64,000 bases of DNA from a virus (IMGVR_UViG_3300010357_001370:1-64000); one strand, 5' to 3'. Shown: positions 10,584 through 60,571, counted from the first letter of the stretch. Numbers and translations are program-made. The notes: generated by a model not told the origin, from the letters alone.

Positions 10584-10611
10584 AATTAGCTCCTCGTTTA
10601 GTTAGTTACAA

Positions 10612-10640: not shown

Positions 10641-10661
10641 TGGTTACTGTGCGATATCGAC

Positions 10662-43595: not shown

Positions 43596-44012
43596 ATGAC
43601 GTCTGCTGAGCATACCAAGTTTCGTTCTACTAAGATTTGGAAAGAGTTTCGAAAAAGTATTATACAAACCCGAGGAGCAATTTGTGAATGCTGTGGAACA
43701 AGGTATTCCGGAAAGAGAACCAAGCAGCTTCAAATACATCATAAAGATCCGGTCAATTATACAGATTTGAACCCTGAGAAGTTCGTTATTTTAGATTCCA
43801 GTTGCCATGATCTTATTGAAAGAATGTCCACTAAATTAAAGGGTTCGCGGTCAGGGGATATCCCCCACTTGGAGAATTGGATTAGACTTCTCTATACTTT
43901 TCTACCGTATGAAACTCAAAGGATAGTGGTTGAGAAATATGATGATTATCTATCAAGCAAGATGCCTGACGAGTGGAAAGATTTATGTAGGACAAACGAA
44001 AACGAGCCTTGA
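43596..44012 (+). CDS. HNH endonuclease
   Basis: CECCG, LQIHHKD, CHDLI; GAGGAG SD. Confidence 0.8.
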   Translation: MTSAEHTKFRSTKIWKEFRKSIIQTRGAICECCGTRYSGKRTKQLQIHHKDPVNYTDLNPEKFVILDSSCHDLIERMSTKLKGSRSGDIPHLENWIRLLYTFLPYETQRIVVEKYDDYLSSKMPDEWKDLCRTNENEP

Positions 44013-44730
44013 AGAACGTAGGTGCAGGCACGAATATAATGCATTTTCAAAGAATATGCAAACCTACTTTTATAGAGCGTTAAGAAAGTATGGAAAAGAT
44101 GATTTCGAATGGTCTATAATTTATGAGGCAAGCGAATTAGAGGATTTAGATGTACTCGAAATTCAATTTATAGAGAGTCTAAATACGCTTGTACCTAATG
44201 GATATAATCTTACGAAGGGCGGCGACGGTGGAGACACTTTTTCTAGACTTTCTTCTGAAGAACAAGATCAAAAACGAAGGAAAATGAGTTTAGCTAGTAC
44301 AGGACGTCGCGCTATTACTACGTTAGGTAGACAAAGATTAAGAGAGAATATGTTAAAAAATAATCCGATGAAGAGAGAAGAGGTTCGAAGAAAGGTAAGT
44401 GAACATCATGCTGATGTATCTGGAGAAAATAATCCCATGTATGGAAAAACACATACGGATGAAGTAAAAAAGAAGCTTTCGATTTTAGCAACCGGAAGAG
44501 TACCATCAGATGATGTTCGAGCGCTTTGGTCTCGACAACGCTCAGGAGCAGGTAATCCAAAAGCACATCCAATTCGATGTGTAGAGACGGGAGAAGTATT
44601 TTCTCACATCAAAGAAGCTCTTTCGAGGTATGGGCAAATTAGTATTTCAAGAGCAATACGAGAAAAGAAAACTGCTGGTGGTTATCACTGGGAGAGAATC
44701 ACAAAAGAAGAATACGAGAGTATACTATAA
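43930..44730 (+). CDS. GIY-YIG homing endonuclease with NUMOD3/NUMOD1 motifs
   Basis: IIYQ...GKIYVGQT, E..FI, NGYN...GG, NPMYGKTHTDEVKKKLS, CVETGEVF...GGYHW. Confidence 0.9.
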   Translation: MRNMMIIYQARCLTSGKIYVGQTKTSLEERRCRHEYNAFSKNMQTYFYRALRKYGKDDFEWSIIYEASELEDLDVLEIQFIESLNTLVPNGYNLTKGGDGGDTFSRLSSEEQDQKRRKMSLASTGRRAITTLGRQRLRENMLKNNPMKREEVRRKVSEHHADVSGENNPMYGKTHTDEVKKKLSILATGRVPSDDVRALWSRQRSGAGNPKAHPIRCVETGEVFSHIKEALSRYGQISISRAIREKKTAGGYHWERITKEEYESIL

Positions 44731-44742: not shown

Positions 44743-44973
44743 ATGCATGCAGACTATAAATGTGAATGCGGAGAGCTGCTTGAAGTTACGTTCTCTATAA
44801 AGGATGGGCCGCCGAAGGAAGTTAATTGTCCAAAGTGCAAGAAAGCCATGCAGCGCGAGTGGAAGTCTGCAATTCATATTCCTCTAGACTTCGCGGACGA
44901 TCTCACTACGAGCATTAGTCAGCGCATGTTTCATGCAAAGCGCCCTACAGGAAAAGACAAGGTCTACTACTAA
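44743..44973 (+). CDS. FmdB-family zinc ribbon protein
   Basis: YKCECG...CPKC..M.R. Confidence 0.8.
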   Translation: MHADYKCECGELLEVTFSIKDGPPKEVNCPKCKKAMQREWKSAIHIPLDFADDLTTSISQRMFHAKRPTGKDKVYY

Positions 44974-44997: not shown

Positions 44998-47334
44998 ATG
45001 GATTCAACACGACTGCGCGAAGGCGTAACTACATATCTAAGCTCTGCCTTTCCTCAATCTCAGATAGCGCGACAAGGCTTTATGGGTCGTCTATCGTCTC
45101 TTTGGGGATGGAGAGCTAGCTCTGCTCAAGATTCTCAGACAAAGTTATCAAAGAAGGCCGGCGTTCAGTTTGTTCGTGTTGATCCGAACAATAAGTCAAT
45201 GCGGGAGCTTGATGCCAAACTAGGAGCGCTTTTCCAGAACGTTCCTCTTTCCGACCGACTTGAAAAGCTCTTCGAAGCATGGCTTCGCGATAGTACGAAT
45301 GGATACGATGATCTTCGAGATCGTCAGAAGCGTATTAACGAGCTCAACTTCATGTACTATAATGATCCGTTTATTAGCCGCGTCGTTCAGCTTGTAGCTG
45401 ATGAAGCCACGCAGCTCGATGTTCAGGATCGTCTCCTTTCCGTAGAGAGCCCTGACCCGCGAATGGCTGAGCGAATCTATCAGCTCCTCGATATGTGGGG
45501 CATCAATCAGCAGCGCATCCATGGCATGTGCTTCGATTTGGAGCTTTGCGGTGAAGGTTTCTGGGCTAATAAGATTACAGCGAACGGCGTTGAGAAGATC
45601 ATTCCTCTTCAGGTAGGGCAGATCCTCGAACGCCTTGAGTTCAATCCTACAAAGGTAGCTGAGGAGATCAGAGCACGCCAGGGATCGATCATGACAATGA
45701 TCAATCGCGATGCTAAGCTCCAGATGCTCTTACAGTCCTTCGAAGAGCTGCAGGTCACAGAAAACTTCGCAGAGATGTTCGAGACAAAGCTTTTTGGTTA
45801 CGTTATCGATAACGAAACAGTTGTCCCGCCGTGGACGGTTACGCACTTCCGTCTAAATGCCGATCACTCAGAATTTTATCCATATGGACGCCCGCACCTC
45901 CTAGCAGCCCTAGCACCATTCAAGCAAGCTGCTTCGACAATGACGCTCCAGTCTCTTGCACGTATCCTCTCCTTCCCCGTAACGCTCTATAAGGTTAAGA
46001 CGGCACAGGGAATGGATACTGCAATGGTCTGGGACCACGTCAACAGCGTTCGAGAGCAGTATGACAACATCGGTGTTAATCCCGTTGCCGGTCAGTCTGA
46101 GGTCTACTCAGTTAACACCAAGATTTGGATTCCAGATGGTCTACTCGAAGTAGATGTCAAGGAGTCTAAGGCCGATATCGACTTCGTAGGCGACCTCGAA
46201 ATGTACATCGATCGTATCTGTATCGCGTCTGGTGTACCGAAAGGTTATCTCGTCCAGGAGTGGGGCGGGTTTGGTGCTAGCGCAGTTTCCTTAACTGAGC
46301 AGTTCAAGCCGTTCGCTCGCCACGTCTATACCATTCAGGCTTCCTTCCTCGAAGGTCTAGCTGATTTGATTCGCCTACACTTCGTTATTACTGGTGAGTT
46401 TGATTACACTACACCGTTTACACTCTCTATGCGCTTCCCGGCCGAAGAAATGTCCGAAGATAAGCGCAATGCTCGTCAAGGATCTATAGATCTCGCTAAA
46501 GATGTCATGGAGCTTATCGGTACTGCAATGGGTGTAAGTGATGAAGAGCCTCTACCGCCAGATGTCGTTAAGGATATCATGGCCAAATACACCTTCCTTG
46601 ATCCTACTGACGTCCTTAAGTGGACAAAGCAAGTAGGTGATCAGGTTCTTATTGCTAAGTCCCGCAGCGGGGACGACGACGAAGAAGGCGGAGGTGGTTC
46701 TTCCAGCGGAGGCGGCTCCAGTGGCGGCGGCGGAGGCCTCGATGAGCTAGAAGATATGCTCGGCACCGAAGGTGGCGAGGATATCGGCGGAGGCGATGAA
46801 GGTGGTGGGGAAACTACAGAAGAGAGTATGCGCCGTTCCCGCCGATTCGCCTTGAACAGAATTCGAGAAGCTCGCTTTAAGGAACTTCGAATGCGCTACC
46901 GGGAAGTAAAGGATGATCTATACTTTAAGATACTCCGACAGAACAATATTACAGAGTTTACGCGTAACAAGCGCCACGTTATGCTAGCTAAAAATATTCA
47001 TTATTCTCAGGAACCGATGTTTGAGACGCTGAATGCTTGGAGAGAGTATCAGAAGACGGGCAAGGGTCCTGCTAAGATGAAGACACTTCACGAAACGCTA
47101 GTAGCTATGAAATTAGAAGATGCTACGCCGAACGCCGGAGATATGAAGTTTGAAAATATCAAGGCAGACATGTCCAAGGAGCGCGCACATCTCGAAGAAG
47201 ACGTTCCGGGCCCGAGGAATGAGAGTTGGACCGAACATCTAACAGAAGATCTCAGCGACGGGTTTAATGACGTTGAGTCTCAGGAGGCCGCAGTAGATGA
47301 TAGCGGGGATTTAGTACAAGAAGGGGATAGATAA
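44998..47334 (+). CDS. gp20: Portal protein, T4 gp20-like, with long C-terminal extension
   Basis: Y....P.ISR....VADEA, G..YL..A..P.KQ, LYKV..A, ASGVPKGYL, S.TEQ.KPFAR.V..IQ; Gly/acidic linker near the C-terminus. Confidence 0.85.
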   Translation: MDSTRLREGVTTYLSSAFPQSQIARQGFMGRLSSLWGWRASSAQDSQTKLSKKAGVQFVRVDPNNKSMRELDAKLGALFQNVPLSDRLEKLFEAWLRDSTNGYDDLRDRQKRINELNFMYYNDPFISRVVQLVADEATQLDVQDRLLSVESPDPRMAERIYQLLDMWGINQQRIHGMCFDLELCGEGFWANKITANGVEKIIPLQVGQILERLEFNPTKVAEEIRARQGSIMTMINRDAKLQMLLQSFEELQVTENFAEMFETKLFGYVIDNETVVPPWTVTHFRLNADHSEFYPYGRPHLLAALAPFKQAASTMTLQSLARILSFPVTLYKVKTAQGMDTAMVWDHVNSVREQYDNIGVNPVAGQSEVYSVNTKIWIPDGLLEVDVKESKADIDFVGDLEMYIDRICIASGVPKGYLVQEWGGFGASAVSLTEQFKPFARHVYTIQASFLEGLADLIRLHFVITGEFDYTTPFTLSMRFPAEEMSEDKRNARQGSIDLAKDVMELIGTAMGVSDEEPLPPDVVKDIMAKYTFLDPTDVLKWTKQVGDQVLIAKSRSGDDDEEGGGGSSSGGGSSGGGGGLDELEDMLGTEGGEDIGGGDEGGGETTEESMRRSRRFALNRIREARFKELRMRYREVKDDLYFKILRQNNITEFTRNKRHVMLAKNIHYSQEPMFETLNAWREYQKTGKGPAKMKTLHETLVAMKLEDATPNAGDMKFENIKADMSKERAHLEEDVPGPRNESWTEHLTEDLSDGFNDVESQEAAVDDSGDLVQEGDR

Positions 47335-48671
47335 TGGCTATTTCAACTGCTATTCAGACCAGCGGCGCAACTATACAATTTGGAACAGTCAGCGGTTCCG
47401 CATTTACTGCTGGTAATATTAGAATTAAGGGATCAGCTACCGTAGACGGTCAGCTAGATATCAATTCTTCTGCTGCACTCGCTGTGACTGCTTCCGTACT
47501 GGCCGTCACAGCTTCTGGAGCGGTAGGCATCACATCCTCTAAGCCTATTCAAGCAGCGTCGTCCGCGGTGATTGGTGGCTCCGGCGGAGTTCTCCCCGCT
47601 ACGTCCGGATCGCTTTCTGCAGGAGGTGGACTCCTCGTTAAAGATGAGACATCTGGTAAGAATTGGTTCCTCCACGTACACGCAGATCGTATTAGGTTGT
47701 TCGACGGGGTATCGACAGAGCTAGTCTTTACCACTCCGGCTGATTCCATAGCCCAGGCTACCAATGCTCTCGCCTGCTCAGGTAACGCCGCAACCGCTAC
47801 TCTTGCTGCAGCAGCTACAAAACTTGCAACAGCTCGAACGATTGGTGGGGTCAGCTTTGATGGGACAGCAAACATCAATCTCCCTGGCGTTAACACATCC
47901 GGTAATCAGAATACCTCAGGAAATGCCGCTACTGCGACACTAGCTGCTACAGCTACTACAGCAACAAATGCTCTTGCATGTTCCGGTAATGCCGCTACTG
48001 CGACACTAGCTGCTACAGCTACTACAGCAACAAATGCTCTTGCATGTTCCGGTAATGCCGCTACTGCGACACTAGCTGCTACAGCTACGATTAGCTACAA
48101 TAATAGATCAGCAGCTAACTACCAGATCTTATTTGGCTCCGGTGTCGGGCTATATGCTTCAGACCTTGTAACAATGAATCCCAGCACAGGAACAATCACA
48201 ACTACAAATATTAGCGGAGCAGGCCGAGGAGGAATAATTTCCGGCTTCAGTAAAGTCTATAATGCTGTTTGGAATGATTATGCCGACTATATTTCTCTTG
48301 AAGGGCCAATTCCAATAATTCCAGGCCGGGTCTATTCGTACAACGGGCACTTTCATCAGATAGCCTCGTCGTATGCTGAGATGGGAGTAATCGGTATCTG
48401 TTCCGATACTTTCAGCTTTGTTGCAGGTCATAAAGAAGATGAATTCCAAGTACCAATTGCAGTCTGCGGATTCGTCTTAGCTTACGTTGATAAAGTCTAT
48501 CCGTCAGGGACTCCACTCACGTCAGCCACCGACGGTGGGCTAACCGAGATGACTCTAGAAACCAAAATGAAGTTCCCGGAGCGTTTGCTAGCTACTTTTT
48601 ATAAAGAAGAGAGAAGCACCGCTTGGTACGGAATAGAGGTTAATGGACGGCACTGGGTTCAAGTTCGCTAA
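47334..48671 (+). CDS. Tail fibre/spike-like protein with GNAATAT repeats
   Basis: GNAATAT(K/L)LA repeats, ARTIGGVSFDGTANI, C-terminal NAVWNDYA domain. Confidence 0.7.
   Translation: MAISTAIQTSGATIQFGTVSGSAFTAGNIRIKGSATVDGQLDINSSAALAVTASVLAVTASGAVGITSSKPIQAASSAVIGGSGGVLPATSGSLSAGGGLLVKDETSGKNWFLHVHADRIRLFDGVSTELVFTTPADSIAQATNALACSGNAATATLAAAATKLATARTIGGVSFDGTANINLPGVNTSGNQNTSGNAATATLAATATTATNALACSGNAATATLAATATTATNALACSGNAATATLAATATISYNNRSAANYQILFGSGVGLYASDLVTMNPSTGTITTTNISGAGRGGIISGFSKVYNAVWNDYADYISLEGPIPIIPGRVYSYNGHFHQIASSYAEMGVIGICSDTFSFVAGHKEDEFQVPIAVCGFVLAYVDKVYPSGTPLTSATDGGLTEMTLETKMKFPERLLATFYKEERSTAWYGIEVNGRHWVQVR
47922..48088 (+). repeat. Perfect 66-bp tandem repeat, 2.5 copies (NAATATLAATATTATNALACSG)
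   Basis: Units start at 47922, 47988 and 48054 and are identical at nucleotide level. Confidence 0.95.
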
Positions 48672-48708
48672 TTTTTCCGTATATTATAAGTCTCTATAAG
48701 GAGTTGCT

Positions 48709-48951
48709 ATGGACCTGCGACACAATATTACTATATGCACTCGATGCAAGAAGCCCCTAACAGGCTTGAAGTACTACATCTCGTTAAAGATGGACGCACT
48801 AAAAGAAAAGGAAAGCGGGGCTTGGGAAACAATACCCACTCTCGACCTAACTACAAATGAGGTGGTTTGTGACACTTGCTTTGAAACATTCTCGCAAGCC
48901 ATAATTGCAGGTATGTCGCAGGAGAAGGCCGATGAGTCTTCAGCGTCCTGA
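48709..48951 (+). CDS. Small CxxC...CxxC zinc-binding protein, paralog of 6697..6990
   Basis: CTRC...WETIPTLD...EVVCDTCF; AGGAG SD. Confidence 0.75.
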   Translation: MDLRHNITICTRCKKPLTGLKYYISLKMDALKEKESGAWETIPTLDLTTNEVVCDTCFETFSQAIIAGMSQEKADESSAS

Positions 48952-50101
48952 GGAACTGGGGATAACTCAGTTCGAACTTGTAGTAACCGAAAACTGCAAT
49001 TCGAAGTGTACATACTGCTTCGATAACTATTTCGCCGGACAGCGCATTAACACAAAGGATCCTACTCGTTGGATGCAACCGGAGCTTATTCCAGACCTGA
49101 TCAAGTTTATGGATAAGACCTGCGCTGATCCAAAGCAGGAAAAGCGTCTCAACATTCACTATATCGGCGGCGAACCTCTCATGAATTTTGAATTTATGAA
49201 AGCAAGTGTCCCGGCATTCAGAGAGCACTTTGGCCCACGCGTAACGTTTTCTATCAACACAAATATCCTACTCATCACAGATGAGATTCTAGAGATGTTT
49301 GTAAAGTACAACTTCAATATCACGACATCTATCGATGGAGGCCGAGAGTCCCATAACGCTCACCGAGGAAACTGGGAGAAGGTAATTGAGAACCTGATAC
49401 GTATCAAAGCAGCTTTTCTTGATGCTAAGGGTCCGGGAGCCGATGTAGCTGCCATCGGAGCAGTGTTTGTTGTTAGTGCCGATCGATCCGATTATGTCGT
49501 CGAGGATTATAGAACTCTTTCCAAGTTCTGCAATTGTCGTATTAACCTTAATGCCGAGGATCCGCTCTGGACCGACCAAAAGGTAGACGATGTCTGCAAC
49601 GCAATTCGTACAATCGCCGCTACTACACCAGATTTCTTTTCAGGAGATCTCGTCGGTGGATTTGAGCCTAAGTATTGGACAGCAATAGAGGGCAATGGAA
49701 GTCCATTCTTCTGTCACACGCCGATACATAATGTAACAATCAATCCGATGGGTAAGCTATTTTTCTGCCACAGACTTACTCCAAAGTCCTATGAATTTAC
49801 TCCAGAGTTTTCGGAATTCTATGGTGATATTTACCAGGGATATTATAACACCGACTACTACACCAGCATGATAGAATGTCGTGTTGGGGGATCTAACATG
49901 TTCGAGGATTGTAAAACATGTAAATACGTTAATATGTGTCGGCAGAATTGCCGTGCAGTACACATTGCTAACGGCGGTAAAGTTAATAAAATCATGTGTA
50001 AGTATATTCAAACGTACTTCGATCTTCTAGAACAACACTACGGTCGGGCACTAAATAGGAAGCCTAATAGAGGAGATCTCAATGCCAACCTGTGCACCTA
50101 A
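48932..50101 (+). CDS. Radical SAM/SPASM maturase
   Basis: CNSKCTYC, IGGEP, SIDG, FCHR, CKTC....MCRQNC; start taken at 48932 (AGGAG SD). Confidence 0.92.
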   Translation: MSLQRPEELGITQFELVVTENCNSKCTYCFDNYFAGQRINTKDPTRWMQPELIPDLIKFMDKTCADPKQEKRLNIHYIGGEPLMNFEFMKASVPAFREHFGPRVTFSINTNILLITDEILEMFVKYNFNITTSIDGGRESHNAHRGNWEKVIENLIRIKAAFLDAKGPGADVAAIGAVFVVSADRSDYVVEDYRTLSKFCNCRINLNAEDPLWTDQKVDDVCNAIRTIAATTPDFFSGDLVGGFEPKYWTAIEGNGSPFFCHTPIHNVTINPMGKLFFCHRLTPKSYEFTPEFSEFYGDIYQGYYNTDYYTSMIECRVGGSNMFEDCKTCKYVNMCRQNCRAVHIANGGKVNKIMCKYIQTYFDLLEQHYGRALNRKPNRGDLNANLCT

Positions 50102-51032
50102 CTATTTAAACGTCGGATATAAGGAATATTTTAACGCCACCGGAGCAAATTGTCAGCAGTACACAAATGGTGGCGGAAACGCTTGTGTTCAATATTGCCC
50201 TGCGAACGCAACTACCTACAACAGATACGGAAATGCTTATACTCCAGCCTGTACAGAGGCTCGCTGCGCTCAATCATATATAAACGCCTTTGACGATTGC
50301 GCGCAGTACTACAACTATTCAAACTATCTGAATTATACGCGAAACGTTTCTGGAGCCGGAGCGTATTCTCTTGGACTTAATACTACACTTATCGATAGTG
50401 TTACGACTGTAGACGCTACTGCTATCAGCGCAATTAAGCATATGCGAGATAAGCTAGTAGAGCTCGTTAACAATAAGCCCCAGCAATCTACAGTTCCTGA
50501 AACCGGGCTTACTGCAGTCTCTGATGCTACTTTTGACGACGGCAACCCGTCGACGATAGAGAAAACTGCCGCAGCCCAGTACAATGCTCTTCAATCTAAG
50601 TTTGCCGCTCTCCGGAATGCCATCAATACCGGGGTAGCCGTTAGTTCAACTCAAGTCGCACCCGGGGATACTCTTACTAAGAACCACCTAACAGCTTTGA
50701 AAACAGATCTAACAAACTTAGCGGCTGCCTGTTATCAGACATACGCTAATCAGCAAGTAGGTGCAGGGTACGCTAACGCCAACAGTGCATATACTCGCGC
50801 TGTTTATGGCGCTTCGGTTGCGTACACAAATGCATACTGCGCAGAGTATATCTGTACCAACACGGGCTCCGGCTGCGGGCAATACAATTACTCGGATTAT
50901 TCCAATTGTACGAATACATTGAGTTGCGGCAACTGCCGAAATTCGGGTCACTATAACTATAGTAATTACTCGAATCATGCAAATCATTCAAATCATTCGA
51001 ATTATTCAAATGTTTGCAGAAGAGATTACTAA
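50082..51032 (+). CDS. Cys/Tyr/Asn-rich putative rSAM substrate A with C-terminal NHS/NYS repeats
   Basis: ~15 Y-x-N and 4 H-x-N motifs; ends NYSNYSNHANHSNHSNYSNVCRRDY; GAGGAG SD. Confidence 0.8.
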   Translation: MPTCAPNYLNVGYKEYFNATGANCQQYTNGGGNACVQYCPANATTYNRYGNAYTPACTEARCAQSYINAFDDCAQYYNYSNYLNYTRNVSGAGAYSLGLNTTLIDSVTTVDATAISAIKHMRDKLVELVNNKPQQSTVPETGLTAVSDATFDDGNPSTIEKTAAAQYNALQSKFAALRNAINTGVAVSSTQVAPGDTLTKNHLTALKTDLTNLAAACYQTYANQQVGAGYANANSAYTRAVYGASVAYTNAYCAEYICTNTGSGCGQYNYSDYSNCTNTLSCGNCRNSGHYNYSNYSNHANHSNHSNYSNVCRRDY

Positions 51033-51046
51033 AGAGGTAGTGAGAT

Positions 51047-52042
51047 ATGCCATCCTGTGCACCAAACTATGCTAACGTAGGCTACAAAGAATACTTTAAT
51101 GCCGCGGCTCCGGGAGTACAATACTCGAATTATGCAAATCTGTGTATACAGACATACTGTGCAGACTCTCGTGTAGCCTACTACGGTAACACAGGAGCTG
51201 GTGGCGGAGGTATATGTAACCAAGGTGTATGCTATCAAACCTGTACGAACTTCAATCAGTACGGTACCACGTACCCAGCAAATAAAGATGACTGCTCTCA
51301 GTATTCTAATTATAGTAACTGTACAAATTATGCCCGAAACGGTGGCGGAGCGGGCACAGTTCTTCCTGCACTCAGCCTCGATCAGTCTGTCATTGATGGA
51401 ATAACAGACATACCAACGTCAATTACAGCTGTAACCCATCTTCGAGATAAGTTAGCAACCTTAATTAGCCTTAAGCTAAGACAGGACACGGTCGACGACG
51501 CGATGCCTTCGACGATCAGCGATGCTACGTTTAATGATAGTAACTCAGCTACTGCTGAAATAACTCTAGCTACTCAGTATAATGCTCTGAAAACTAAAAT
51601 GGACGCTTTTTGGAATGCATTAAAGGCTGGAGGAACTACTCTCACTACTCCTAGCTCGGATGCGGTAAAATCTTCTGGAGATACCCTTTTTAAGAATAGT
51701 ATACTGGCTCTTAAAACGGATCTGGTGACTATAGCAAATGCATGCTCGCAGACATACGCTAACTATCAGAATGGTTACGCAGCTGTTCTTGCTGATACCT
51801 ATACGAATAGCGTCGCTACATATACTAGAACGACAGTGTATAGAGATGCGTTCTGTAGCCAGTTAGTTTGCACAAACACAGGTGGCGGTTGCGGCCAGTA
51901 CAATTATTCGAATTATAATAATTGTACAAATACTGTCTGGCACAACCGATACATGAATACTCAGGATTGTTGGAATTACGCTAATCACAGTAACCATTCG
52001 AACCATTCAAATTATCGCGATACCTGTAGACGAGATAACTAA
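51047..52042 (+). CDS. Cys/Tyr/Asn-rich putative rSAM substrate B, paralog of A
   Basis: Shared N-terminus MPxCAPNYxNVGYKEYFNA; ends NYANHSNHSNHSNYRDTCRRDN. Confidence 0.8.
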   Translation: MPSCAPNYANVGYKEYFNAAAPGVQYSNYANLCIQTYCADSRVAYYGNTGAGGGGICNQGVCYQTCTNFNQYGTTYPANKDDCSQYSNYSNCTNYARNGGGAGTVLPALSLDQSVIDGITDIPTSITAVTHLRDKLATLISLKLRQDTVDDAMPSTISDATFNDSNSATAEITLATQYNALKTKMDAFWNALKAGGTTLTTPSSDAVKSSGDTLFKNSILALKTDLVTIANACSQTYANYQNGYAAVLADTYTNSVATYTRTTVYRDAFCSQLVCTNTGGGCGQYNYSNYNNCTNTVWHNRYMNTQDCWNYANHSNHSNHSNYRDTCRRDN

Positions 52043-52058
52043 CTAAGAGGAGAATAGC

Positions 52059-52757
52059 ATGACTTGTGAACTACAGTGGGATATTAAAGCTCAGGCTTTT
52101 AAGGGTATAGCCCAATTTACATATGCAGAGGACCCATCTAATCTTCCATTTGACGAACACGGATTCTACTATGGCGTTAAGTATGGATTTGATGGAGTAG
52201 TTACCGAGCGGTATTACGCTCTTCAACCCGGGGATATCTTCGTGAACGAGGATGCAGAAGATCCGGACCGTATCACTACCTTTAAGAGTATCACTAGGCG
52301 TACAGTGACTCCTACCGATTTCTACATATCCTATAGGTCCCGACCCTTTACTTATCTAGATAATCATCCAGAGATTCAGGTGGATAGCAGGCTTCTCGCT
52401 GCAGCAAACGGTCTCGGAATTCGGTATAACGCAGAATCGAAGGAAACTCTCGTATACTATGTACATGCTGTAGATCCTCGATGTCGGATGTTGATTGAGG
52501 GAACAGACGATGCGGCTTATCTGCGAGAAGATGCGGATTTCTTAAAGTTTACTCAAGAGCAAGCCGCTGCATTAACAGAATTCAAGTCTGCCGCAGGCGT
52601 TTCGTTCCACGGATTTGGAATAACCCATCTTGCAGAGATTATTATTGTTCCAGGTATTTATCGATATGTAGCTTTTTGGAACAACGATATTCTAAAGGAT
52701 TATCTTAATTTCTGGGAGGGAGAGTATGCACTTCCTGGTCAGATTTTCAACGTGTAA
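52059..52757 (+). CDS. Hypothetical protein in the rSAM operon
   Basis: GAGGAG SD; Tyr-rich, predicted beta-strands. Confidence 0.7.
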   Translation: MTCELQWDIKAQAFKGIAQFTYAEDPSNLPFDEHGFYYGVKYGFDGVVTERYYALQPGDIFVNEDAEDPDRITTFKSITRRTVTPTDFYISYRSRPFTYLDNHPEIQVDSRLLAAANGLGIRYNAESKETLVYYVHAVDPRCRMLIEGTDDAAYLREDADFLKFTQEQAAALTEFKSAAGVSFHGFGITHLAEIIIVPGIYRYVAFWNNDILKDYLNFWEGEYALPGQIFNV

Positions 52758-52766
52758 GGAGTCGAA

Positions 52767-54128
52767 ATGTTCCAGTTTAATAATCAACTCGTCTTAAAGG
52801 TAACGAAGGGTTGCAATCTTCGTTGTGAGTACTGCTATGTAATGAATAAGGACCTTCATGAAGGTCAGTTTATAGATTTTGAGCTCTATAAAAAAATTAT
52901 TGATGCTGTTGTTCTAGATAGACTTAAGTCTACTCAAGGTAAGAATGAAGACTTTAATTTAACCTTTCATGGTGGCGAGCCTACCACTATTAACAAAACT
53001 AGATTTTTCCAGATGTGTGAGTATGCCCGGGATAAGTTTTTCAAAGCCGGGCTTCATTTGTCGCTATCTATTCAAACAAACCTCACCCTCATCGATGAGG
53101 AGTGGTGCCAGCTTTTTAACCGCTTTAATGTAGCTGTCGGAGCTAGTTGGGACGGAACTGGACCGGCTAACGAAGCTCGTACAGACAAGTCTGAAGACTT
53201 CTATCATGAGAAGACTCAGATGTTTAAGAAGTATAATGTTCAGCACGGGTTTCTACTCGTAGTAAATCGGCATAGTGTAGACTATATCCCAGAGTCGCTA
53301 GAGATCCTAAAAAACAAATTCCATAAAAACCAAGGTCGACTCAACTACGTAGAGGATGTGATTACTCCCTTTGGGCAACCGAGTAGTATAGAAGTACCTG
53401 GAAAGGAATTTTTTGAAAAGGTGACAAAAGCCCAGGTAGATCAGTTCATCGCTACCGGCCAGTGTTTTGATGGTAATATTACAAATAGCATAGAAAAGTT
53501 TATGATTGACTACCTGACGAATGTAGGTAGCTTGTACCCGGAAAACGGTAACTGCTACGTCAAGTATTGCGGCTCTGGAATCAACGTATTGGAAATGGAC
53601 CCTGACGGTTCCGTTCTCTTTTGCGGCCGATACGGGGATGCTTATGAAGATGCCATTCTCATGCACGGGCTTGATGAAGACTTTCTCTCTATGAAGCAAA
53701 TACTAAAACATCTAGAGTTTCAGAAAGCTAAGATTGCAGCAATGAAGCGATCTCATTGCGACGACTGCAAAGCTCAGAATATTTGTGACCACGGTTGCAT
53801 GGCATATCACTATACGAAGCCGCAGGCGGACGGAACCCACAAGTGGGGTATTCGAAATGATCTAACGTGCGCTATGTTTAAGCCTCTATATGATTATATG
53901 TTTGAGCATGCTAACGATATTTTTGAGTCATATTTTAAGAACGACGTCGTCCCAGCCGGACAGACTCAACTTAGCCTACCAAAGTCTTCTAATTTCTATC
54001 CAGAGCTAAGTGTTTCTAAGATTCAAGATAGACTCCAGAAGTACGGGATAACAGTCGAAATTCGGGATTCGCGAATTATATTTAATGCACAGCGCCAGGG
54101 GTCATATGACCATACGGCTCATTGTTAG
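52767..54128 (+). CDS. Radical SAM/SPASM maturase, paralog of 6983..8281
   Basis: CNLRCEYC, FHGGEP, CYVKYCGSG, CDDC....ICDHGC. Confidence 0.92.
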   Translation: MFQFNNQLVLKVTKGCNLRCEYCYVMNKDLHEGQFIDFELYKKIIDAVVLDRLKSTQGKNEDFNLTFHGGEPTTINKTRFFQMCEYARDKFFKAGLHLSLSIQTNLTLIDEEWCQLFNRFNVAVGASWDGTGPANEARTDKSEDFYHEKTQMFKKYNVQHGFLLVVNRHSVDYIPESLEILKNKFHKNQGRLNYVEDVITPFGQPSSIEVPGKEFFEKVTKAQVDQFIATGQCFDGNITNSIEKFMIDYLTNVGSLYPENGNCYVKYCGSGINVLEMDPDGSVLFCGRYGDAYEDAILMHGLDEDFLSMKQILKHLEFQKAKIAAMKRSHCDDCKAQNICDHGCMAYHYTKPQADGTHKWGIRNDLTCAMFKPLYDYMFEHANDIFESYFKNDVVPAGQTQLSLPKSSNFYPELSVSKIQDRLQKYGITVEIRDSRIIFNAQRQGSYDHTAHC

Positions 54129-54136
54129 GAGACTCA

Positions 54137-55159
54137 ATGTCGAACGTCATTCTTACTCATGCATGCAATAAAGGTTGTTCATACTGCTTTGCTCGTGAAA
54201 CTCGCGACTCTCACGTAACTGTTGGAGCATGTGCAGACGATGTGCATATGTCAATGGAGATGTTTTCATCTATCCTTGACAAGCACGTAGCCAATCTGCC
54301 TCCGGGTCGAGCAGGTCAGGTTAAGCTTCTCGGTGGTGAGCCAACTCAGCATCCTAAATTCGACGAGATCCTTGCGCTCTGCTATGAGAGGAATATTGAA
54401 GTAACTCTGATCTCTAATTTTCTCTTCTCTAAGGAGAAGCGAGATATTATTCTAAAGTATCTTGAAGCGCGCCCCATGCATTTTCTTATCAACTCTACGG
54501 AGCTTGATCAGAAGAACCGTATGGAGATCTTCAAGGAAAACTATAATGAGATATATAAGTTTCTATATGCACGAAATGCTGAAGACAATATGTCGTGCGG
54601 GCTGACGCTTGATCAGGATGTAGGAATTGAATATTACATAAACTATATTGATTACTTGAAGGATAACCTCATCGCAATTGAGCATATGCGAGTAAGCTTA
54701 TCCTTCCCTGGCGATACGGATAAGAAGAATCAGTTTTTCTTTATTAACAATACTAAGCTTGGCGATAGCTTGGTGTTCATTACAAAGAAGCTTCTAGATG
54801 CTAATATCCCAGCTAACCTCGATTGTATTAACTTCCCGTGTATGTACGAGTCTAAAGAAGAGTCTAAGTTTGTAAAGAAATTCTTAGCTGGATCAGATAA
54901 GTATATCTGCGGAACCGGTCCCGGCCCTACGGACTATATGCCCGACGGAACAGCCATCTATTGCTATCCAAATGCTAACACCGTAGTAGACGCTACTAGA
55001 CTAAAGTCCGATACCGCAGTTCAGGAATCTCTTCGTATGAAATACCAGATTGCTAGAGCTACTCTAGTACTACCCGATGCCTGTCAGGAATGTAATGCTA
55101 GAAAGGCTGGGCAGTGCGACGGCCCCTGCTTAGGTTTCTTTAGTTATGATAAGATCTGA
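54137..55159 (+). CDS. Radical SAM protein
   Basis: CNKGCSYC, LLGGEP, C-terminal CQEC......CDGPC; AGGAG SD before 54137. Confidence 0.9.
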   Translation: MSNVILTHACNKGCSYCFARETRDSHVTVGACADDVHMSMEMFSSILDKHVANLPPGRAGQVKLLGGEPTQHPKFDEILALCYERNIEVTLISNFLFSKEKRDIILKYLEARPMHFLINSTELDQKNRMEIFKENYNEIYKFLYARNAEDNMSCGLTLDQDVGIEYYINYIDYLKDNLIAIEHMRVSLSFPGDTDKKNQFFFINNTKLGDSLVFITKKLLDANIPANLDCINFPCMYESKEESKFVKKFLAGSDKYICGTGPGPTDYMPDGTAIYCYPNANTVVDATRLKSDTAVQESLRMKYQIARATLVLPDACQECNARKAGQCDGPCLGFFSYDKI

Positions 55160-56267
55160 TGTTAATTTAACATATGTTACACTTCTGGTTACAGAGAACT
55201 GCAATCAGAAGTGTACGTACTGTTATGATAACTTTTTTGCAGGCGAGCGTGTTAACAGTGATAAGCCAGATGCCTGGCTATCTGTAGATATGCTTCCGAG
55301 TATTGTATCTTTTGTAGACAGCCACAGAGACAAATCTAAACCTATCCGATTTCATTATATCGGTGGCGAACCTCTTTTGAATTTCGAATTTGTCAAAACC
55401 AGCGCTAAGCAGCTGTTCTTACATTACGGTCCGTCTACAAAATTCTATATCAATACTAATCTTACTATCCTAACAGACGAGATGATTGATACTTTTGTAA
55501 AGTACCACTTTACAGTTACCACGTCGATAGATGGTCGTAGAGAGGCTCACAATAGGTATAGAGCAAATTGGGATCTCGTAATTCAAAATCTGATCCGACT
55601 AACAACGCGGTATATAGAAGCTTTCGGGCCTGATCATAATAGTATCCGGTCTAACTGCGTAGTTAGCGCTGCTAACGTGTCGACTCTATTAGAAGATTTT
55701 TTAGCAATCAATCGTTTTTGTCCATTACAGCATCTAGACTTCAATGCAGAGGACCCGGACTGGACTCCAAACAAGCTAGAGGAATTAAAGAGAGTTATTC
55801 AAACTATTGCAAGGTTAGTCCCGAGCTTCTTAAACGAGAACGGGGTGTATCAATCCGCAGTTAAGGCTCAAACAGATTCTAAGTATTGCTGTAACCCTCA
55901 TAGAACAGTAACAATAGGTCCCAGGGGTCGTCTTTACTTTTGCCACCGCCTCGTTCCTAAGTCCTATGTATTCACTCCCGGTTTCACAGAGTACTACGGA
56001 GATATATATGCCGACTACTCTAATACAGAGTATTTCGAACGAATGGATACGTACGAGAAAAATATAGGTCCCGAGTGTGCCGCTTGTAAATATCTTAAGT
56101 ACTGCAAAGGTGGCTGCAGAGCCTTAGATTGTAGTCCGAATCCGTTACCGAAAGGTATTGGGGTTCACCCAGATTGTACGTACCAGGGTATCATCTACGA
56201 CATATACGAAGAACTTAATAGTAAGTCTCTTAGTTCAGAATCCTTACCGTCTTCACCGGCGCCATAG
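55146..56267 (+). CDS. Radical SAM/SPASM maturase, paralog of 48932..50101
   Basis: CNQKCTYC, HYIGGEPLLNFEF, FCHRLVPKSY, CAAC...YCKGGC. Confidence 0.92.
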   Translation: MIRSDVNLTYVTLLVTENCNQKCTYCYDNFFAGERVNSDKPDAWLSVDMLPSIVSFVDSHRDKSKPIRFHYIGGEPLLNFEFVKTSAKQLFLHYGPSTKFYINTNLTILTDEMIDTFVKYHFTVTTSIDGRREAHNRYRANWDLVIQNLIRLTTRYIEAFGPDHNSIRSNCVVSAANVSTLLEDFLAINRFCPLQHLDFNAEDPDWTPNKLEELKRVIQTIARLVPSFLNENGVYQSAVKAQTDSKYCCNPHRTVTIGPRGRLYFCHRLVPKSYVFTPGFTEYYGDIYADYSNTEYFERMDTYEKNIGPECAACKYLKYCKGGCRALDCSPNPLPKGIGVHPDCTYQGIIYDIYEELNSKSLSSESLPSSPAP

Positions 56268-57091
56268 CAGAATTTGCAACCTGCTGTAAATTCTCTATTC
56301 CAGATTTGATGAGCTATATCGCGAGTGCGTTCTGTACCTAGCATTTCAAGCACCGGGGTACTGAACGCATTCCCTATGTAAGTGCCATCTTCGCGTAGCG
56401 GCTGGCATACACAAAGCGAAACTTCTCCGGTAGTTAAGACAGATACTTGAAACGGGGAACAGTGTTCGAGTTTTGGAACAGTAGACCAATCCCGGATTGC
56501 GGGGTCTTGTAGAGACGGAAGACCTAGTCTTTCAAGGTAGTTCTCAAAGTCATATTCCGGGTCGATCAGCCATTTCATAAAGCCTTCAGAGTAGACATCG
56601 ATAGTTGTACCAGACTGCATTTCCGGTACAACAGCAGGACCCATATTAGGATGATAGACGCGCTTAGCCTGCACCTGTGTTGGAGCGATAGCTTGGAGAC
56701 GTCTATAGTTTTCGAGAGTAAGGTCAAGAAGAGACTGAGGGATTGCATAATCGCTAAAGTCAACCGCTACGTATTGAATTTTAGTTAGCGTGCGGAGGTT
56801 TTCATCTGTCAATTCTGTAGCTAAGTTAGTTGCGATATAGATGAGGTGAAACCCTGCCGTGGCGAGACGATCTACAATCTCAAAGAAGTTCGGATTCATT
56901 AAAGACTCGCCTGCGGGAATAAAGAAGATACCTAGTCGATCCTTATCGTGTTGATTCAGAACAATAAAGCGTTCGATATCGGGAACGGTCATTATGTGGG
57001 TACCGTGCTGAGCTACTCCGGGGATAATGCAGCAATGCGGACATCTCTTTTGACAGATACCATATACGGCGTGAAGGTTTATATTGATCAT
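56195..57091 (-). CDS. Short radical SAM protein with SPASM/twitch-like tail
   Basis: CQKRCPHC, PAGES, C...GEVSLC..., IGN, CKFC. Confidence 0.8.
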   Translation of the reverse strand: MININLHAVYGICQKRCPHCCIIPGVAQHGTHIMTVPDIERFIVLNQHDKDRLGIFFIPAGESLMNPNFFEIVDRLATAGFHLIYIATNLATELTDENLRTLTKIQYVAVDFSDYAIPQSLLDLTLENYRRLQAIAPTQVQAKRVYHPNMGPAVVPEMQSGTTIDVYSEGFMKWLIDPEYDFENYLERLGLPSLQDPAIRDWSTVPKLEHCSPFQVSVLTTGEVSLCVCQPLREDGTYIGNAFSTPVLEMLGTERTRDIAHQIWNREFTAGCKFCYGAGEDGKDSELRDLLLSSSYMS

Positions 57092-58009
57092 TTATGCCTC
57101 TACGAGATTACGAAGTAGCTCTTGAAACGTCGGATCATCCTCACGTCCACAGCCTTTGCAACCTTTACAGGGAGCGAGCTTCCGGTTGTAGACGACGTCG
57201 TATGCGCGCTTAGACTGTTCAGTTTTGAAGAGATCGAACAGCGGAGTAGTGAATGCGTTCCCTGCATTAAGCTCCTCATGTCCCAGCGGCATCAGTCCGC
57301 AGTACGCTACCATTCCGGTCGGGAGAACTACCACTTGGCTCGGAATACAAGTAGCGTCAGTTACATCGGTGCTGGTAAATATCATCTCTCGATTATTTAC
57401 TATCGTAGGGTCGCTCGGATGAATATCGATCTGTTTGAGGTAGCGAAAATAATCGAACTTCGGCATTATATATTTGACCATGTCCCGAGAGAATATCTCC
57501 ACCGGTTCCGGTTGTAAGTTTATGCGGGAAGCTATGCGATCAGGAAGGACATACGAGTCTCTCGGATGGTACACCTTCTTTAGATGCACGTTGCTATTCT
57601 TAGCGATTCCTACTAAACGCTCCCAGTTGCTCGCTACTAGATCAGATTGCCATCGGGGAACCCGATATGAGCTAATATCTACTGCGATGTCTTTAATTTT
57701 ACTAAGAGTTTGGAGCTGTTCGTCGGTGAGATTAAGTGCAAGGTTAGTCGACATATGAAGGAGATTGAAGCCCGCTTCGTCTAGTGCATCTATAATTTTG
57801 AAGATATCCTTATTGATGAGAGGCTCTCCCATAGGAATTATGAGAATGAGAAACTTATCAGCGTGAGCTTTGTTCAGTCGAATGAATGCCTCAATATCGG
57901 ATAGCGTAATGTACTGAGGCTCTGCATATTCTCGCATGTATGGGATAACACAGTGACAGCAAGGACGCTGGCATGCTCCGTATGTTAGATACAGATTAAC
58001 TCGAATCAT
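57092..58009 (-). CDS. Short radical SAM protein, paralog of 56195..57091
   Basis: CQRPCCHC, PMGEP, C..SQV.VL.TG.V..C, GNAF, CKGC. Confidence 0.8.
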   Translation of the reverse strand: MIRVNLYLTYGACQRPCCHCVIPYMREYAEPQYITLSDIEAFIRLNKAHADKFLILIIPMGEPLINKDIFKIIDALDEAGFNLLHMSTNLALNLTDEQLQTLSKIKDIAVDISSYRVPRWQSDLVASNWERLVGIAKNSNVHLKKVYHPRDSYVLPDRIASRINLQPEPVEIFSRDMVKYIMPKFDYFRYLKQIDIHPSDPTIVNNREMIFTSTDVTDATCIPSQVVVLPTGMVAYCGLMPLGHEELNAGNAFTTPLFDLFKTEQSKRAYDVVYNRKLAPCKGCKGCGREDDPTFQELLRNLVEA

Positions 58010-58898: not shown

Positions 58899-59018
58899 TT
58901 AGTCGTAGTCAGTTTCGTCGTAAGATGCCGCGATGACGAAGGACTCTAGGAACTCCATGATGCGCTCCTCTACGATCTTGATGCGAGCCTGTTCGGGAAC
59001 GACGTGGAAGTCGACATG
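58899..59018 (-). pseudogene. Headless 3' gene fragment
   Basis: HVDFHVVPEQARIKIVEERIMEFLESFVIAASYDETDYD* with early-gene codon bias; no upstream start before the in-frame TGA at 59042-59040. Confidence 0.5.
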
Positions 59019-59517
59019 GACAGAGGAGAGAAGAGCTGCTCAAGCGGAACGGGCTCGAGCTCTCTGGGTCGATCCGGAACATAGAGCGCGTGTATTAGCT
59101 ACTCGTTCCGCCACTTGCGAAGCCCGTCTTGAAGCTCTTCCCCTCGATGAAAAAGAGAAGCGGCTAAAAGATAGAGAGAGATCAGCTCGGTGGAAGCGCG
59201 GGGACCCTATTCCAGAGGACAGTTATATCTATAAAAAGCCTCCTGAGTTTAGTCAAAAAGTCTCCGCAGCTCTAAAGGGTCGTCCTAAAACTGTGGAACA
59301 TAAACAACATCTTTCAGAAGCCCGAAGAGCTAACCCGCGAGAATATTCTGATGCTGAACGACAAAGTAAATCTGCTAAAATGACTGGCCGTACTTGGATA
59401 CATTTTGAAAAGACATCTAAGATGTGTACTCAAGAAAATCTGCCAGACTATCTTGCTGAAGGCTGGCAGATTGGTCGAGCTCCTAAATATCCCACTTCAA
59501 AAGGTAACGAGGGTTAA
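58933..59517 (+). pseudogene. NUMOD3-type homing endonuclease remnant without nuclease domain
   Basis: KVSAALKGRPKTVEHKQHLSEARR, MTGRTWIH...YLAEGWQIGR; the N-terminal ~28 codons are antisense to another gene fragment. Confidence 0.55.
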
Positions 59518-60571
59518 TATATTTCATCGAAATGCTCGGATTGTCCTTAGCACGAAGAACGATACCCTCACGAACCTTGTCCGTGATGATGAATGTCCCC
59601 TCGGAGAGCTTTGCGACATCCTCCAACGTCTTGAGAGGAGGAACGTCGATGACCCATGGAACCATCTGGAACAGCTCGCAGTTGTCATCCTGGGTGAACG
59701 TGTCATCGAAGACGTGGCTGAGCTCATCGAGTACGAAGGCGATCTCGCTATTATCGAGACGCGTAGCGGTGTCGAGGTTCTGGACGGTGAAAACGAACAG
59801 CTTCACCTCAGTGAGGCCGATTCGGTTGCTCTGAATGCCAGGACCAGCCACCTCACCCTGAATGGCGAAGTTGGTCATCCTGCCAGTAGCAGCGTACTTA
59901 CGCATGCGCTTCTCGATGTTGTACTTGCGAGCCATCTTCCAGAAGATGTTGCTCTCAGTATCCTTCAGCTCCTGGTTGCGGCTGCAAACTCCGAACTCTC
60001 CGTTGAAGAGGAAGTAGGTGCCGCTCGACCCGTCCATCTTGACAGTGACGTCGAACTCATGCTCAGCGAGCATCTTCTCGAGAACGTCCTGCTCGAACCC
60101 CTGAGCCCTCAGCTCATCAGTCTTCTCGATGAAGCCCGGGAATGGACCCTTGGTGTCGCCACCGATCTGAGCAGTCTCCGGAATCTCGTACTTGACGACT
60201 CCGAGAGCGTCAGTAACGTCGGCACCTTCGAGAAAACGATTTGCATCGATAGCATTCTGAGGAGGGTACTTAAGCACGTCTGCAAAGTCTTCCAGAGGCA
60301 TACTGAGACCCTGGCTTACCTGGCCGCGGAGCTTGATAGTCTTGACACGGTAGTTGTAGGGTGCCATGAACTCGAAAATCGGAAGCTTCGGAAGAACCGA
60401 ATCAACCTCGAAGTAGACGCGCCTATCGCCAGGCTGCGGATTGGTATCTTTGTTGGTGACGCAGACCCAACCCATCGACTCGAACGTGATCTTAACAATG
60501 CTGTCAGCGTTCGGGATAGGCTCGACCGTCTTAATAGTCCTGATTGTTGCTAACTTACGCTTAATATCCAT
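59483..60571 (-). CDS. RNA ligase, DRB0094/Rnl2-like
   Basis: N-terminal OB-like region (PIPNAD, VYFEVDSVLP, IKLRGQVSQGL), KMDGSS, QGEVAGPGIQ, EGIV, K.IN..YLLK. Confidence 0.9.
   Translation of the reverse strand: MDIKRKLATIRTIKTVEPIPNADSIVKITFESMGWVCVTNKDTNPQPGDRRVYFEVDSVLPKLPIFEFMAPYNYRVKTIKLRGQVSQGLSMPLEDFADVLKYPPQNAIDANRFLEGADVTDALGVVKYEIPETAQIGGDTKGPFPGFIEKTDELRAQGFEQDVLEKMLAEHEFDVTVKMDGSSGTYFLFNGEFGVCSRNQELKDTESNIFWKMARKYNIEKRMRKYAATGRMTNFAIQGEVAGPGIQSNRIGLTEVKLFVFTVQNLDTATRLDNSEIAFVLDELSHVFDDTFTQDDNCELFQMVPWVIDVPPLKTLEDVAKLSEGTFIITDKVREGIVLRAKDNPSISMKYINPRYLLKWDI

Follow-up and report, generated by a model that had tools for sequence, protein, structure and literature searches.

The genes described here lie in a virus record from IMG/VR (IMGVR_UViG_3300010357_001370, 74,926 bp). 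They comprise nine radical S-adenosylmethionine (rSAM) genes, two zinc-ribbon genes, and two paralogous proteins rich in Tyr/His-x-Asn triads, which are here called substrates A and B after their proposed role. The window, meaning the whole stretch of DNA that was analysed, is the first 64 kb of the record. CheckV puts the completeness of the record at 29%, so that the genome of this uncultured giant phage should measure roughly 250 kb. Across its 74.9 kb there are 12 matches to the rSAM domain PF04055.

The gene order (Table 1) is as the first-pass annotation had it: a tail fibre, a zinc protein, an rSAM gene, the two substrates, a protein without a family, three more rSAM genes, and two rSAM genes on the minus strand that converge on the plus-strand operon. 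From the portal gene to rSAM-4 all genes are on the plus strand, and neighbours either overlap or are spaced by 8–38 nucleotides. The start of rSAM-1 is most likely the one listed, which gives the same length as in its relatives. The three further rSAM genes reported at 5.7–10.2 kb are also present, and carry four rSAM domains between them. A zinc-ribbon gene that had been missed lies among them; it overlaps the SPASM-III gene at that gene's end and the shorter HxsC-like gene at its start. This distal set adjoins the major head gene (phrog_138).

Table 1. Features of the window, with positions counted from its first nucleotide.
Feature	Position	Strand	Length (aa)	Evidence or remarks
Probable T4-type portal	44998–47334	+	778	ESM Atlas feature score 0.97; 29 of 30 matches are Portal_T4 clusters
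Tail fibre	47334–48671	+	445	phrog_6722, E = 1.6e-20; also 8 other fibre PHROGs
Zinc-ribbon partner 1	48709–48951	+	80	CxxC...CxxC; 4 Cys invariant in homologue alignment
rSAM-1, PapB-like rSAM/SPASM	48932–50101	+	389	PF04055, E = 2.4e-13
Substrate A (putative)	50082–51032	+	316	Cys/Tyr/Asn-rich arrays around a helical core
Substrate B (putative)	51047–52042	+	331	Paralogue of A, 46% identity
Protein without family	52059–52757	+	232	Homologues only in L001 and L003
rSAM-2, anSME-like rSAM/SPASM (SPASM-III)	52767–54128	+	453	TIGR04085 SPASM, E = 3.4e-10
rSAM-3	54137–55159 (listed open reading frame starts at 54122)	+	340	PF04055, E = 1.8e-10; SPASM-like C-terminus, CX2CX7CX3C
rSAM-4, second PapB-like rSAM/SPASM	55146–56267	+	373	PapB, 114 bits
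rSAM-5, twitch-like half-SPASM	56195–57091	-	298	PF04055 25 bits, SPASM 18 bits, both under Pfam cutoffs
rSAM-6, paralogue of rSAM-5	57092–58009	-	305	Half (twitch-like) SPASM
HxsC-like rSAM	5691–6722	-	343	PF04055, E = 1.1e-23
Zinc-ribbon partner 2	6697–6990	-	97	Zinc-ribbon hidden Markov model, 83 bits, E = 3e-24
Second SPASM-III enzyme, paralogue of rSAM-2	6983–8281	-	432	Full SPASM signature
Double HxsC-like rSAM	8285–10210	-	641	Two PF04055 domains
Further rSAM gene, outside the module	24081–25229	-	382	Weak MoaA/NrdG-type matches
GIY-YIG homing endonuclease	43930–44730	+		phrog_314, E = 9e-42
Small protein with CxC...CxxC pairs	44743–44973	+	76	Conserved in L003
RNA ligase with PHA02142 OB-fold (oligonucleotide-binding) domain	59483–60571	-		Same place in L001 and L003

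The Tyr/His-x-Asn protein family

Substrate A contains 19 [YH]xN triads, against 4.7 ± 1.9 in shuffled sequences, and substrate B contains 17, against 3.5 ± 1.7. The richness in these triads noticed in the first-pass annotation is thus real, at about four-fold over shuffles. The excess holds within each terminal segment of both proteins, and there is none in the central 120 residues. C-x3-[DEN] (or C-x3-D/E) is not enriched. In substrate A a helical core (residues about 90–228) lies between Cys/Tyr/Asn-rich arrays ending in (Y/H)-S-N repeats. Both proteins are near neutral in charge and have no hydrophobic segment.

No family was found for the substrates in Pfam, NCBIfam, PHROGs or PADLOC, and substrate A as sole query gave no match in IMG/VR. 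A word-indexed search of 5.8 billion proteins returned only nine close metagenomic clusters, and a profile search of 1.84 billion cluster representatives gave 32 hits, one of them a false positive. Among the isolate phages in GenBank there was no megablast match to the region, and no tblastn match to substrate B or to rSAM-3. By these sequence searches, the substrates are a previously unannotated protein family.

Family statistics and an alignment were prepared from 36 member sequences. Members are 130–370 residues long, with a predicted isoelectric point of 4.1–6.6, no hydrophobic N-terminus and no export signal. They have in common an N-terminus like M-A-Y-S-E-Y-F-N, array units like C-x3-(Y/H)-x-(N/D)-(Y/H)-x-(N/D), and a conserved core of about 140 residues followed by a C-terminal Y-(A/S)-N region. 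Aromatic-x-[ND] triads number 707 where 278 are expected (2.5-fold), with z > 2 in 35 of the 36 members. The enrichment is directional, since triads in reverse orientation are depleted, and so is the x-x spacing. C-x3-aromatic is enriched 3.2-fold. Cysteine itself is not conserved, ranging from 0 to 19 per protein. The sole invariant residues in the alignment are Y221 and N223 of substrate A, which together form a Y-x-N triad.

Read in another register, the (Y/H)-S-N repeats become N-(Y/H)-S, and the arrays could then be N-x-S/T sequons in proteins that are N-glycosylated instead of cross-linked. The sugar-nucleotide genes that lie beside the module in three lineages would suit such a role. 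However, N-x-S/T is enriched only 1.2-fold, in 7 of the 36 members, against the 2.5-fold and 35 members for aromatic-x-N/D; the signal is weak in substrate A (p = 0.011) and substrate B shows no enrichment (p = 0.44). No oligosaccharyltransferase gene was seen, and glycosylation would leave the four conserved rSAM families unexplained. We regard it as highly improbable.

The core is the only part of these proteins that could be modelled with some confidence. AlphaFold2 run on full-length substrate A with a 9-sequence alignment gave a pLDDT (predicted local distance difference test) of 34 and was uninformative. With the family alignment, the core is predicted as a helical bundle with a pLDDT of 76 and a pTM (predicted template modelling score) of 0.70, and the flanks stay below a pLDDT of 50. 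The arrays that make up the flanks are predicted to be disordered. Foldseek searches of the core fold against PDB and BFVD gave nothing at E ≤ 0.001. VIA-align returned generic or de novo helical bundles only, with a best Z of 10.2, which is under the meaningful level for helical folds. ESM Atlas scores for the core were 0.87 or less. One of these matches, at 0.83, is a viral cluster carrying a CxxX-repeat rSAM-target family, and has been treated as a lead only.

A gene set conserved among phage contigs

Relatives of the module were fetched from metagenomic contigs (loci with L numbers), and their context proteins were classified with hidden Markov models built from the window and the first relatives found. 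L001 and L002 resemble the window in having two substrates and six adjacent rSAM genes, while L003 and L004 have one substrate and rSAM-1, -2 and -3 only. In the 179-kb IMG/VR contig L005 the order is HxsC-like, PapB-like, substrate, zinc ribbon, SPASM-III and rSAM-3. The same order is seen in L006, where a copy of the window's distal set comes before it, and in L170 and L171, where the substrate has only 2 Cys; the 201-kb contig L009 has the same components. Two contigs come from metagenome-assembled genomes. L172, which is phage-like and in a genome labelled Gammaproteobacteria, has two substrates, two PapB-like genes, a zinc ribbon, SPASM-III and rSAM-3, and L173, in a genome labelled Omnitrophota, has a substrate, zinc ribbon, SPASM-III and rSAM-3. 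The short contigs L007, L168 and L169 end early, and contain one or more substrates, the zinc ribbon and the start of SPASM-III as far as they reach.

A substrate, a zinc ribbon, SPASM-III and rSAM-3 are therefore found together in the window group, L005, L006, L009, L170, L172 and L173. Wherever the flanks permit a count, all four rSAM families (HxsC-like, PapB-like, SPASM-III and rSAM-3) are present with the zinc ribbon and the substrate. The zinc ribbon occurs in every module found, as do rSAM-3 orthologues. The rSAM genes and the Tyr/His-x-Asn proteins thus co-occur in every lineage found, which bears out the earlier suggestion that they form one dedicated, conserved module. In L005, L006 and L170 the HxsC-like gene is directly beside the PapB-like gene and the substrate. 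Because its parts adjoin the substrate in these relatives, the distal set at 5.7–10.2 kb appears to belong to the same system, and the proposal that the two clusters serve a single pathway is supported.

Copy numbers provide a further link. The number of PapB-like genes equals the number of substrate genes in all eight contigs long enough to count. The substrate tree contains at least four independent tandem duplications, namely window A/B, L172, L168 and L169. Substrate B is the orthologue of the single substrate of L003, and the A/B duplication is older than the split of the window, L001 and L003, so that L003 must have lost substrate A. It also lacks rSAM-4, -5 and -6, which do not adjoin A. 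This co-loss, although a single event, points to rSAM-4, -5 and -6 serving substrate A. The twitch-type enzymes rSAM-5 and rSAM-6 are found only in the window's lineage. By its homologues the 232-residue protein, for which Pfam, NCBIfam, PHROGs and PADLOC gave no family match, also appears to be restricted to this lineage.

These observations bear on the possibility that the rSAM enzymes act elsewhere, on DNA bases, a sugar or a cofactor, and that the Tyr/Asn-rich proteins are unmodified fibre-associated proteins which are merely syntenic with them. There is precedent, since rSAM enzymes serve DNA hypermodification in phages (PMC8989533). Kdo-type sugar genes come after the module in three lineages (L005, L009 and L170), rSAM-3 relatives occur without a substrate (see below), and the HxsC-like enzymes also resemble MoaA, NirJ and AhbD. 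Against this, the linkage survives deep divergence, the substrates being only 25–35% identical between lineages; the PapB-like copy number tracks that of the substrate; and substrate A was lost together with non-adjacent enzymes. In addition, four of the enzymes are SPASM-type, whose characterised members act on peptides or proteins, and the motif grammar of the substrates fits known rSAM target motifs. A target other than the substrates is accordingly judged unlikely.

Several observations on the relatives can be added. The Kdo-type sugar-nucleotide genes lie directly after the module (L005:14099-20783, L009:15064-17756 and L170:12669-14346). They consist of DAHP_synth_1 and an aminotransferase, with a CTP-transferase in L005 and L009 and a carbamoyltransferase in L005; none are present in the window's 75-kb record, which is about 29% of the genome by CheckV. 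Lone relatives of rSAM-3 (L011–L087, for example L043:5049-12694 and L066:5531-12685) come after two or three fibre-like genes that are paralogues of one another (about 370 residues), and are followed by a 346-residue gene and a methyltransferase-like gene. In L010:1-21000 (IMGVR_UViG_3300037086_000474) an rSAM-3-like gene (9998-10993) is inside an array of 15 small paralogous genes whose products all start MK(I/L)RxGF(V/I)SNSS(S/T)SSF, and this may be another system of an rSAM enzyme and tagged substrates. Lastly, the large phage contigs L146 (9995-20222), L139 and L154 have five to seven rSAM genes around a hyper-Cys protein, which in L146 (13776-14564) has 262 residues and 33 Cys, and contain no member of the Tyr-x-Asn family.

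The window DNA is present in anaerobic digester and activated sludge metagenomes from several studies, and this source fits the oxygen-sensitive chemistry of rSAM enzymes. A diverged relative is present in soil metagenomes. It is about 97% identical, but the fibre repeats, the core of substrate A and rSAM-4 contain patches that were replaced or have diverged strongly (window positions 47477-48036, 50398-50553, 55297-55422, 55580-55881 and 59015-59532). Short contigs from two activated-sludge metatranscriptome runs match parts of the zinc ribbon, rSAM-1, the 232-residue gene, rSAM-2 and rSAM-4 with 100% identity, and none covers the substrate genes; these contigs may include DNA carry-over, and show neither expression nor its absence. 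There are no tRNAs within the window, and hence no host clue from them, and promoter and terminator scans gave chance level only.

rSAM enzymes and zinc-ribbon partners

The CX3CX2C motif is intact in all nine rSAM genes of the module, six adjacent and three distal. The full SPASM signature (CX9-15GX4C and CX2CX5-7CX3C) is found in rSAM-1, -2, -3 and -4 and in the second SPASM-III enzyme, while rSAM-5 and rSAM-6 have a half, twitch-like Cys signature. Within the tree rSAM-4 and rSAM-1 are sisters, with 43% identity; the identity between rSAM-5 and rSAM-6 is 38%. The second SPASM-III enzyme is 33% identical to rSAM-2 and 40% identical to its counterpart in L006 (3852-5138), which also has a 42% identical orthologue of the double HxsC-like protein.

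For rSAM-1 and rSAM-4 the best NCBIfam model is PapB (113 and 114 bits; NF047865, cutoff 340), followed by CcpM, QhpD and HxsB. rSAM-2 and its paralogue match best to the anSME model TIGR03942, with 115 and 98 bits (cutoff 349). The context is not that of an anSME: no gene for a sulfatase is present, and the N-terminal sequence of A and B, C-A-P-N-Y, is without the Arg of the (C/S)-x-(P/A)-x-R target. rSAM-2 also matches AmcB, DynA, YhhB and XyeB at 81–89 bits, all under cutoff, and for it and its paralogue together these cyclophane and ether formers and DarE score 65–89 bits. The best triceptide synthase models are YhhB (84 bits), XyeB (81), GrrM (71) and FxsB (60). HxsC4 and HxsC are the best named families for both HxsC-like proteins, again under cutoff: the double protein scores 172 bits with HxsC4 (cutoff 500) and 153 bits over two domains with HxsC (TIGR03977, cutoff 267.9), and the shorter one 88 bits with HxsC. 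rSAM-3, -5 and -6 have weak generic NCBIfam matches only.

Of the family models recommended in the first-pass annotation, the SPASM model TIGR04085 was matched, by rSAM-2; the matches to TIGR03977 and to the HxsB model TIGR03978 (cutoff 370 bits; 78.7 for rSAM-1, 76.2 for rSAM-4 and 57 for rSAM-2) are below cutoff. Taken together, the best matches (PapB, CcpM, QhpD, anSME, AmcB, DynA, YhhB, XyeB and HxsB/C) place the enzymes in the peptide- and protein-modifying SPASM families. PADLOC also produced viperin matches, which are generic matches to the rSAM core and were rejected. Among GenBank phages, relatives of rSAM-2 and the HxsC-like protein are at most 26% identical over most of their length.

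The closest solved structures to the enzymes are 8vpo, CteB, anSME and ChlB (9gm3), with anSME 4k36 the closest to rSAM-2; rSAM-3 has no solved relative. Alignments to families that bear a recognition element (RRE) for peptides that are ribosomally synthesised and then post-translationally modified (RiPPs) begin at about model position 80–100, from which it follows that the phage enzymes have no N-terminal RRE domain. The folded substrate core or the zinc ribbon may carry out recognition.

The four cysteines of the zinc ribbon are invariant in 10 homologues from 7 loci. The zinc ribbons have no family in NCBIfam or PADLOC, and three of them gave no NCBIfam match, HxsD included, at E ≤ 10. The gene of partner 1 runs into the start of rSAM-1. 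In most cases the zinc-ribbon gene overlaps or abuts the SPASM-III gene. Their copy numbers also track each other, being 2 and 2 in the window, 1 and 1 in L003 and L005, and 2 and 3 in L006 and L009.

Other features of the neighbourhood are listed in Table 1. The 3' ends of rSAM-4 and rSAM-5 overlap by 73 nucleotides (56195-56267), and a similar overlap of 64 nucleotides is kept in L001. The RNA ligase gene adjoins the module. Directly upstream of the portal gene are those for the homing endonuclease and the 76-residue protein; orthologues of the latter in L001 and L003 have a faint Zn_ribbon_8 match.

Proposed maturation and comparison with known systems

On the basis of comparative genomics, the link between the enzymes and the substrates is well supported, and we consider it quite probable that the rSAM enzymes modify the substrate proteins. 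With somewhat less assurance, we favour the view that the genes constitute a phage-borne protein-maturation module targeting the Tyr/His-x-Asn family. That the aromatic-x-Asn/Asp triads are the modification sites has a little under an even chance.

The module would work as follows. Its conserved machinery consists of an HxsC-like rSAM, a PapB-like rSAM/SPASM (one per substrate gene), an anSME-like rSAM/SPASM that is translationally coupled to the 4-Cys zinc-ribbon protein, and rSAM-3. Two extra twitch-type rSAMs, along with second copies of several components at 5.7–10.2 kb, occur in this phage alone. The host would be anaerobic, and the module would be read along with the genes for the portal and the tail fibre. 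The enzymes, having no RRE, would use the folded core or the zinc-ribbon partner as their docking site. Each would abstract a hydrogen atom via a 5'-deoxyadenosyl radical, so that many intramolecular cross-links are put into both flanks. The most likely products would be triceptide-like, aromatic-to-C-beta cyclophanes on the triads, and Cys-to-Asn/Asp thioethers may form in Cys-rich members. Since there is no protease or exporter gene, the whole stapled protein would be the product.

The most likely destination would be the virion, at or near the tail fibre, where the protein might be a rigid fibre accessory or adhesin. The gene that opens the plus-strand operon is probably a T4-type portal. 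It had no match in Pfam or PHROGs, so that this identity derives only from ESM Atlas feature similarity, and its orthologue in L003 is 89% identical. The tail fibre gene, whose start overlaps the portal stop, encodes SGNAATA-type repeats. Both the window and L009 have fibre-type genes directly upstream of the module; in L005 they lie about 4 kb upstream of it. That the product is a virion or fibre part is a possibility which we hold to be less than even. The picture in full, of a tail-fibre accessory or adhesin in the virion with both arms stapled by dozens of rSAM-installed C-C, and perhaps C-S, cross-links through four rSAM chemistries and a zinc-ribbon chaperone, is tentative and, taken as a whole, distinctly less likely than not.

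Alternatively, lysis might release the protein, which would then be a RiPP-like bioactive or metal-binding product outside the particle, acting as a toxin against competitors or as a redox or metal carrier. The machinery is indeed RiPP-like, the Cys/His/Tyr-rich flanks could bind metals, and the tandem duplication of substrates resembles multiplied RiPP precursor genes. However, no locus of the module has a protease, leader-peptidase, transporter, exporter or immunity gene, and the conserved 140-residue folded core is unlike a leader peptide. Cysteine is dispensable, with 0–2 Cys in some members, and the module is beside tail-fibre genes. A released product is thus considered improbable.

Several points weigh against the proposal of a module that cross-links its substrates. 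No enzyme attains the curated cutoff of any functionally named family, and because of this the chemistry cannot be read from homology. More than 70 IMG/VR phage contigs have a lone relative of rSAM-3 (about 30% identity) and no substrate, so that this family is not exclusive to the module. The first-pass annotation had counted rSAM clusters without YxN proteins as evidence against its view; these lone enzymes are a case of that kind in part, but the full module was never found without a substrate. PapB-like enzymes persist beside the 2-Cys substrates (L170), which argues against a simple Cys-thioether role. The converse expectation, that the PapB-like enzyme disappears with a Cys-poor substrate, was considered and is not borne out in L170, and no chemistry could be assigned in that way. 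The core has neither an informative fold match nor a PHROG structural family, and it is gene position on which the virion assignment depends.

rSAM maturation of ribosomal peptides is known from bacteria, and whole-protein substrates are only now emerging (QhpC, CrpA and HxsA). A phage that devotes about 10 kb and six to nine rSAM genes to the maturation of its own protein would be new. The first-pass annotation knew of no described system of this kind, and our literature search agrees, in that it turned up no paper about triceptides in phages or about a phage structural protein matured by rSAM enzymes. If the full picture is true, this would be the first case, in any virus, of a RiPP-like structural protein with enzymatic cross-links. 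No triceptide-type substrate known would come near it in size or in density of modification. Such maturation might also offer a novel means of hardening or diversifying a host-binding structure. For enzymology, the module offers four uncharacterised rSAM families, a new zinc-ribbon partner and a substrate with up to about 40 candidate sites, and since the substrate and all of the enzymes are defined, the idea is directly testable by co-expression.

Three groups of known systems invite comparison. In the first, comprising QhpD/QhpC, the PapB/PapA ranthipeptides and CrpC/CrpA, an rSAM/SPASM enzyme links Cys to Asp/Glu-type side chains in Cys-rich polypeptides, whole proteins included; CrpC, for example, installs thioethers on the whole protein CrpA (PMC13692751). 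PapB, CcpM and QhpD are the top matches of rSAM-1 and rSAM-4. The phage system differs in that Cys is not conserved in its substrates, that C-x3-D/E is not enriched and that the scores are far under cutoff. Family members with 0–2 Cys still have a PapB-like enzyme nearby.

The second group is the triceptides, in which rSAM/SPASM enzymes form aromatic-to-C-beta links on three-residue motifs of the type aromatic1-X2-X3 (PMC11499958). The three-residue cyclophane-forming enzymes include XyeB, GrrM/OscB, FxsB, YhhB, HaaB, HtkB and ChlB (PMC11499958). The phage substrates are likewise packed with aromatic1-X2-X3 motifs (Tyr, His, Phe and Trp), as expected of a triceptide precursor, and adjoin SPASM enzymes without an N-terminal RRE, for which ChlB is among the closest structures. 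In contrast to the short leader-plus-core peptides of triceptides, they are proteins of 130–370 residues that have a folded core and carry as many as 40 or so motifs. There are four enzyme families instead of one, there is no protease or exporter gene, and the maturases fall outside the characterised families of these enzymes, with 42–84 bits against cutoffs of 310–450.

The closest known system is HXS (HxsA/B/C/D; TIGR03976-03979). The first-pass annotation cited it as an rSAM pair accompanying a repeat protein. HXS is now more than an annotation, having been characterised as an antiphage defence in which HxsA, once matured, stops phage DNA from entering (Li et al., Nat Commun 2026, PMC13128918). 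In both systems several rSAMs and a small partner would mature a whole repeat protein (about 200–300 residues in HXS), and not a short peptide. For two of the phage enzymes, HxsC-type models give the best named matches. HxsD binds one rSAM, and the phage zinc ribbon is translationally coupled to an rSAM; the two may be functional analogues.

This similarity raises the question of whether the phage carries an HXS-like exclusion system, in which a counterpart of HxsA (which is matured by HxsB, HxsC and HxsD) would be placed in the host envelope and block DNA entry or competing phages. In HXS itself a matured protein effector keeps phage DNA out (PMC13128918), and the architecture is parallel, with several rSAMs, a small partner and a repeat protein of 200–330 residues; HxsC and HxsC4 head the matches of two rSAMs, and HxsB is among those of rSAM-1 and rSAM-4. 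On the other hand, the HxsA and HxsD models are unmatched even at E ≤ 10, HxsA (TIGR03979) having been searched in NCBIfam with the substrates A, B, P0015 and P0029. None of the four models, HxsA to HxsD, accepts a phage protein as a member, and the scores are far under the equivalog cutoffs. The repeats are aromatic-x-N/D and not H-x-S; the substrates are acidic to neutral, as opposed to the basic, DNA-binding repeats of HxsA; they have neither a hydrophobic N-terminus nor a peptidoglycan-binding domain; and the genes are in the portal/fibre operon and not among early genes. We think it unlikely that the module acts in superinfection exclusion.

The maturation module proposed here differs from HXS in other respects also. 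It is encoded by phages, where HXS is found on Pseudomonadota chromosomes, it has four conserved rSAM families to the two of HXS, and its partner is a 4-Cys zinc ribbon. The resemblance nevertheless hints at an evolutionary link between HXS defence and phage-borne modules. The rSAM maturation of repeat-bearing proteins is thus known, and what is new here is the substrate family and the four-enzyme architecture.

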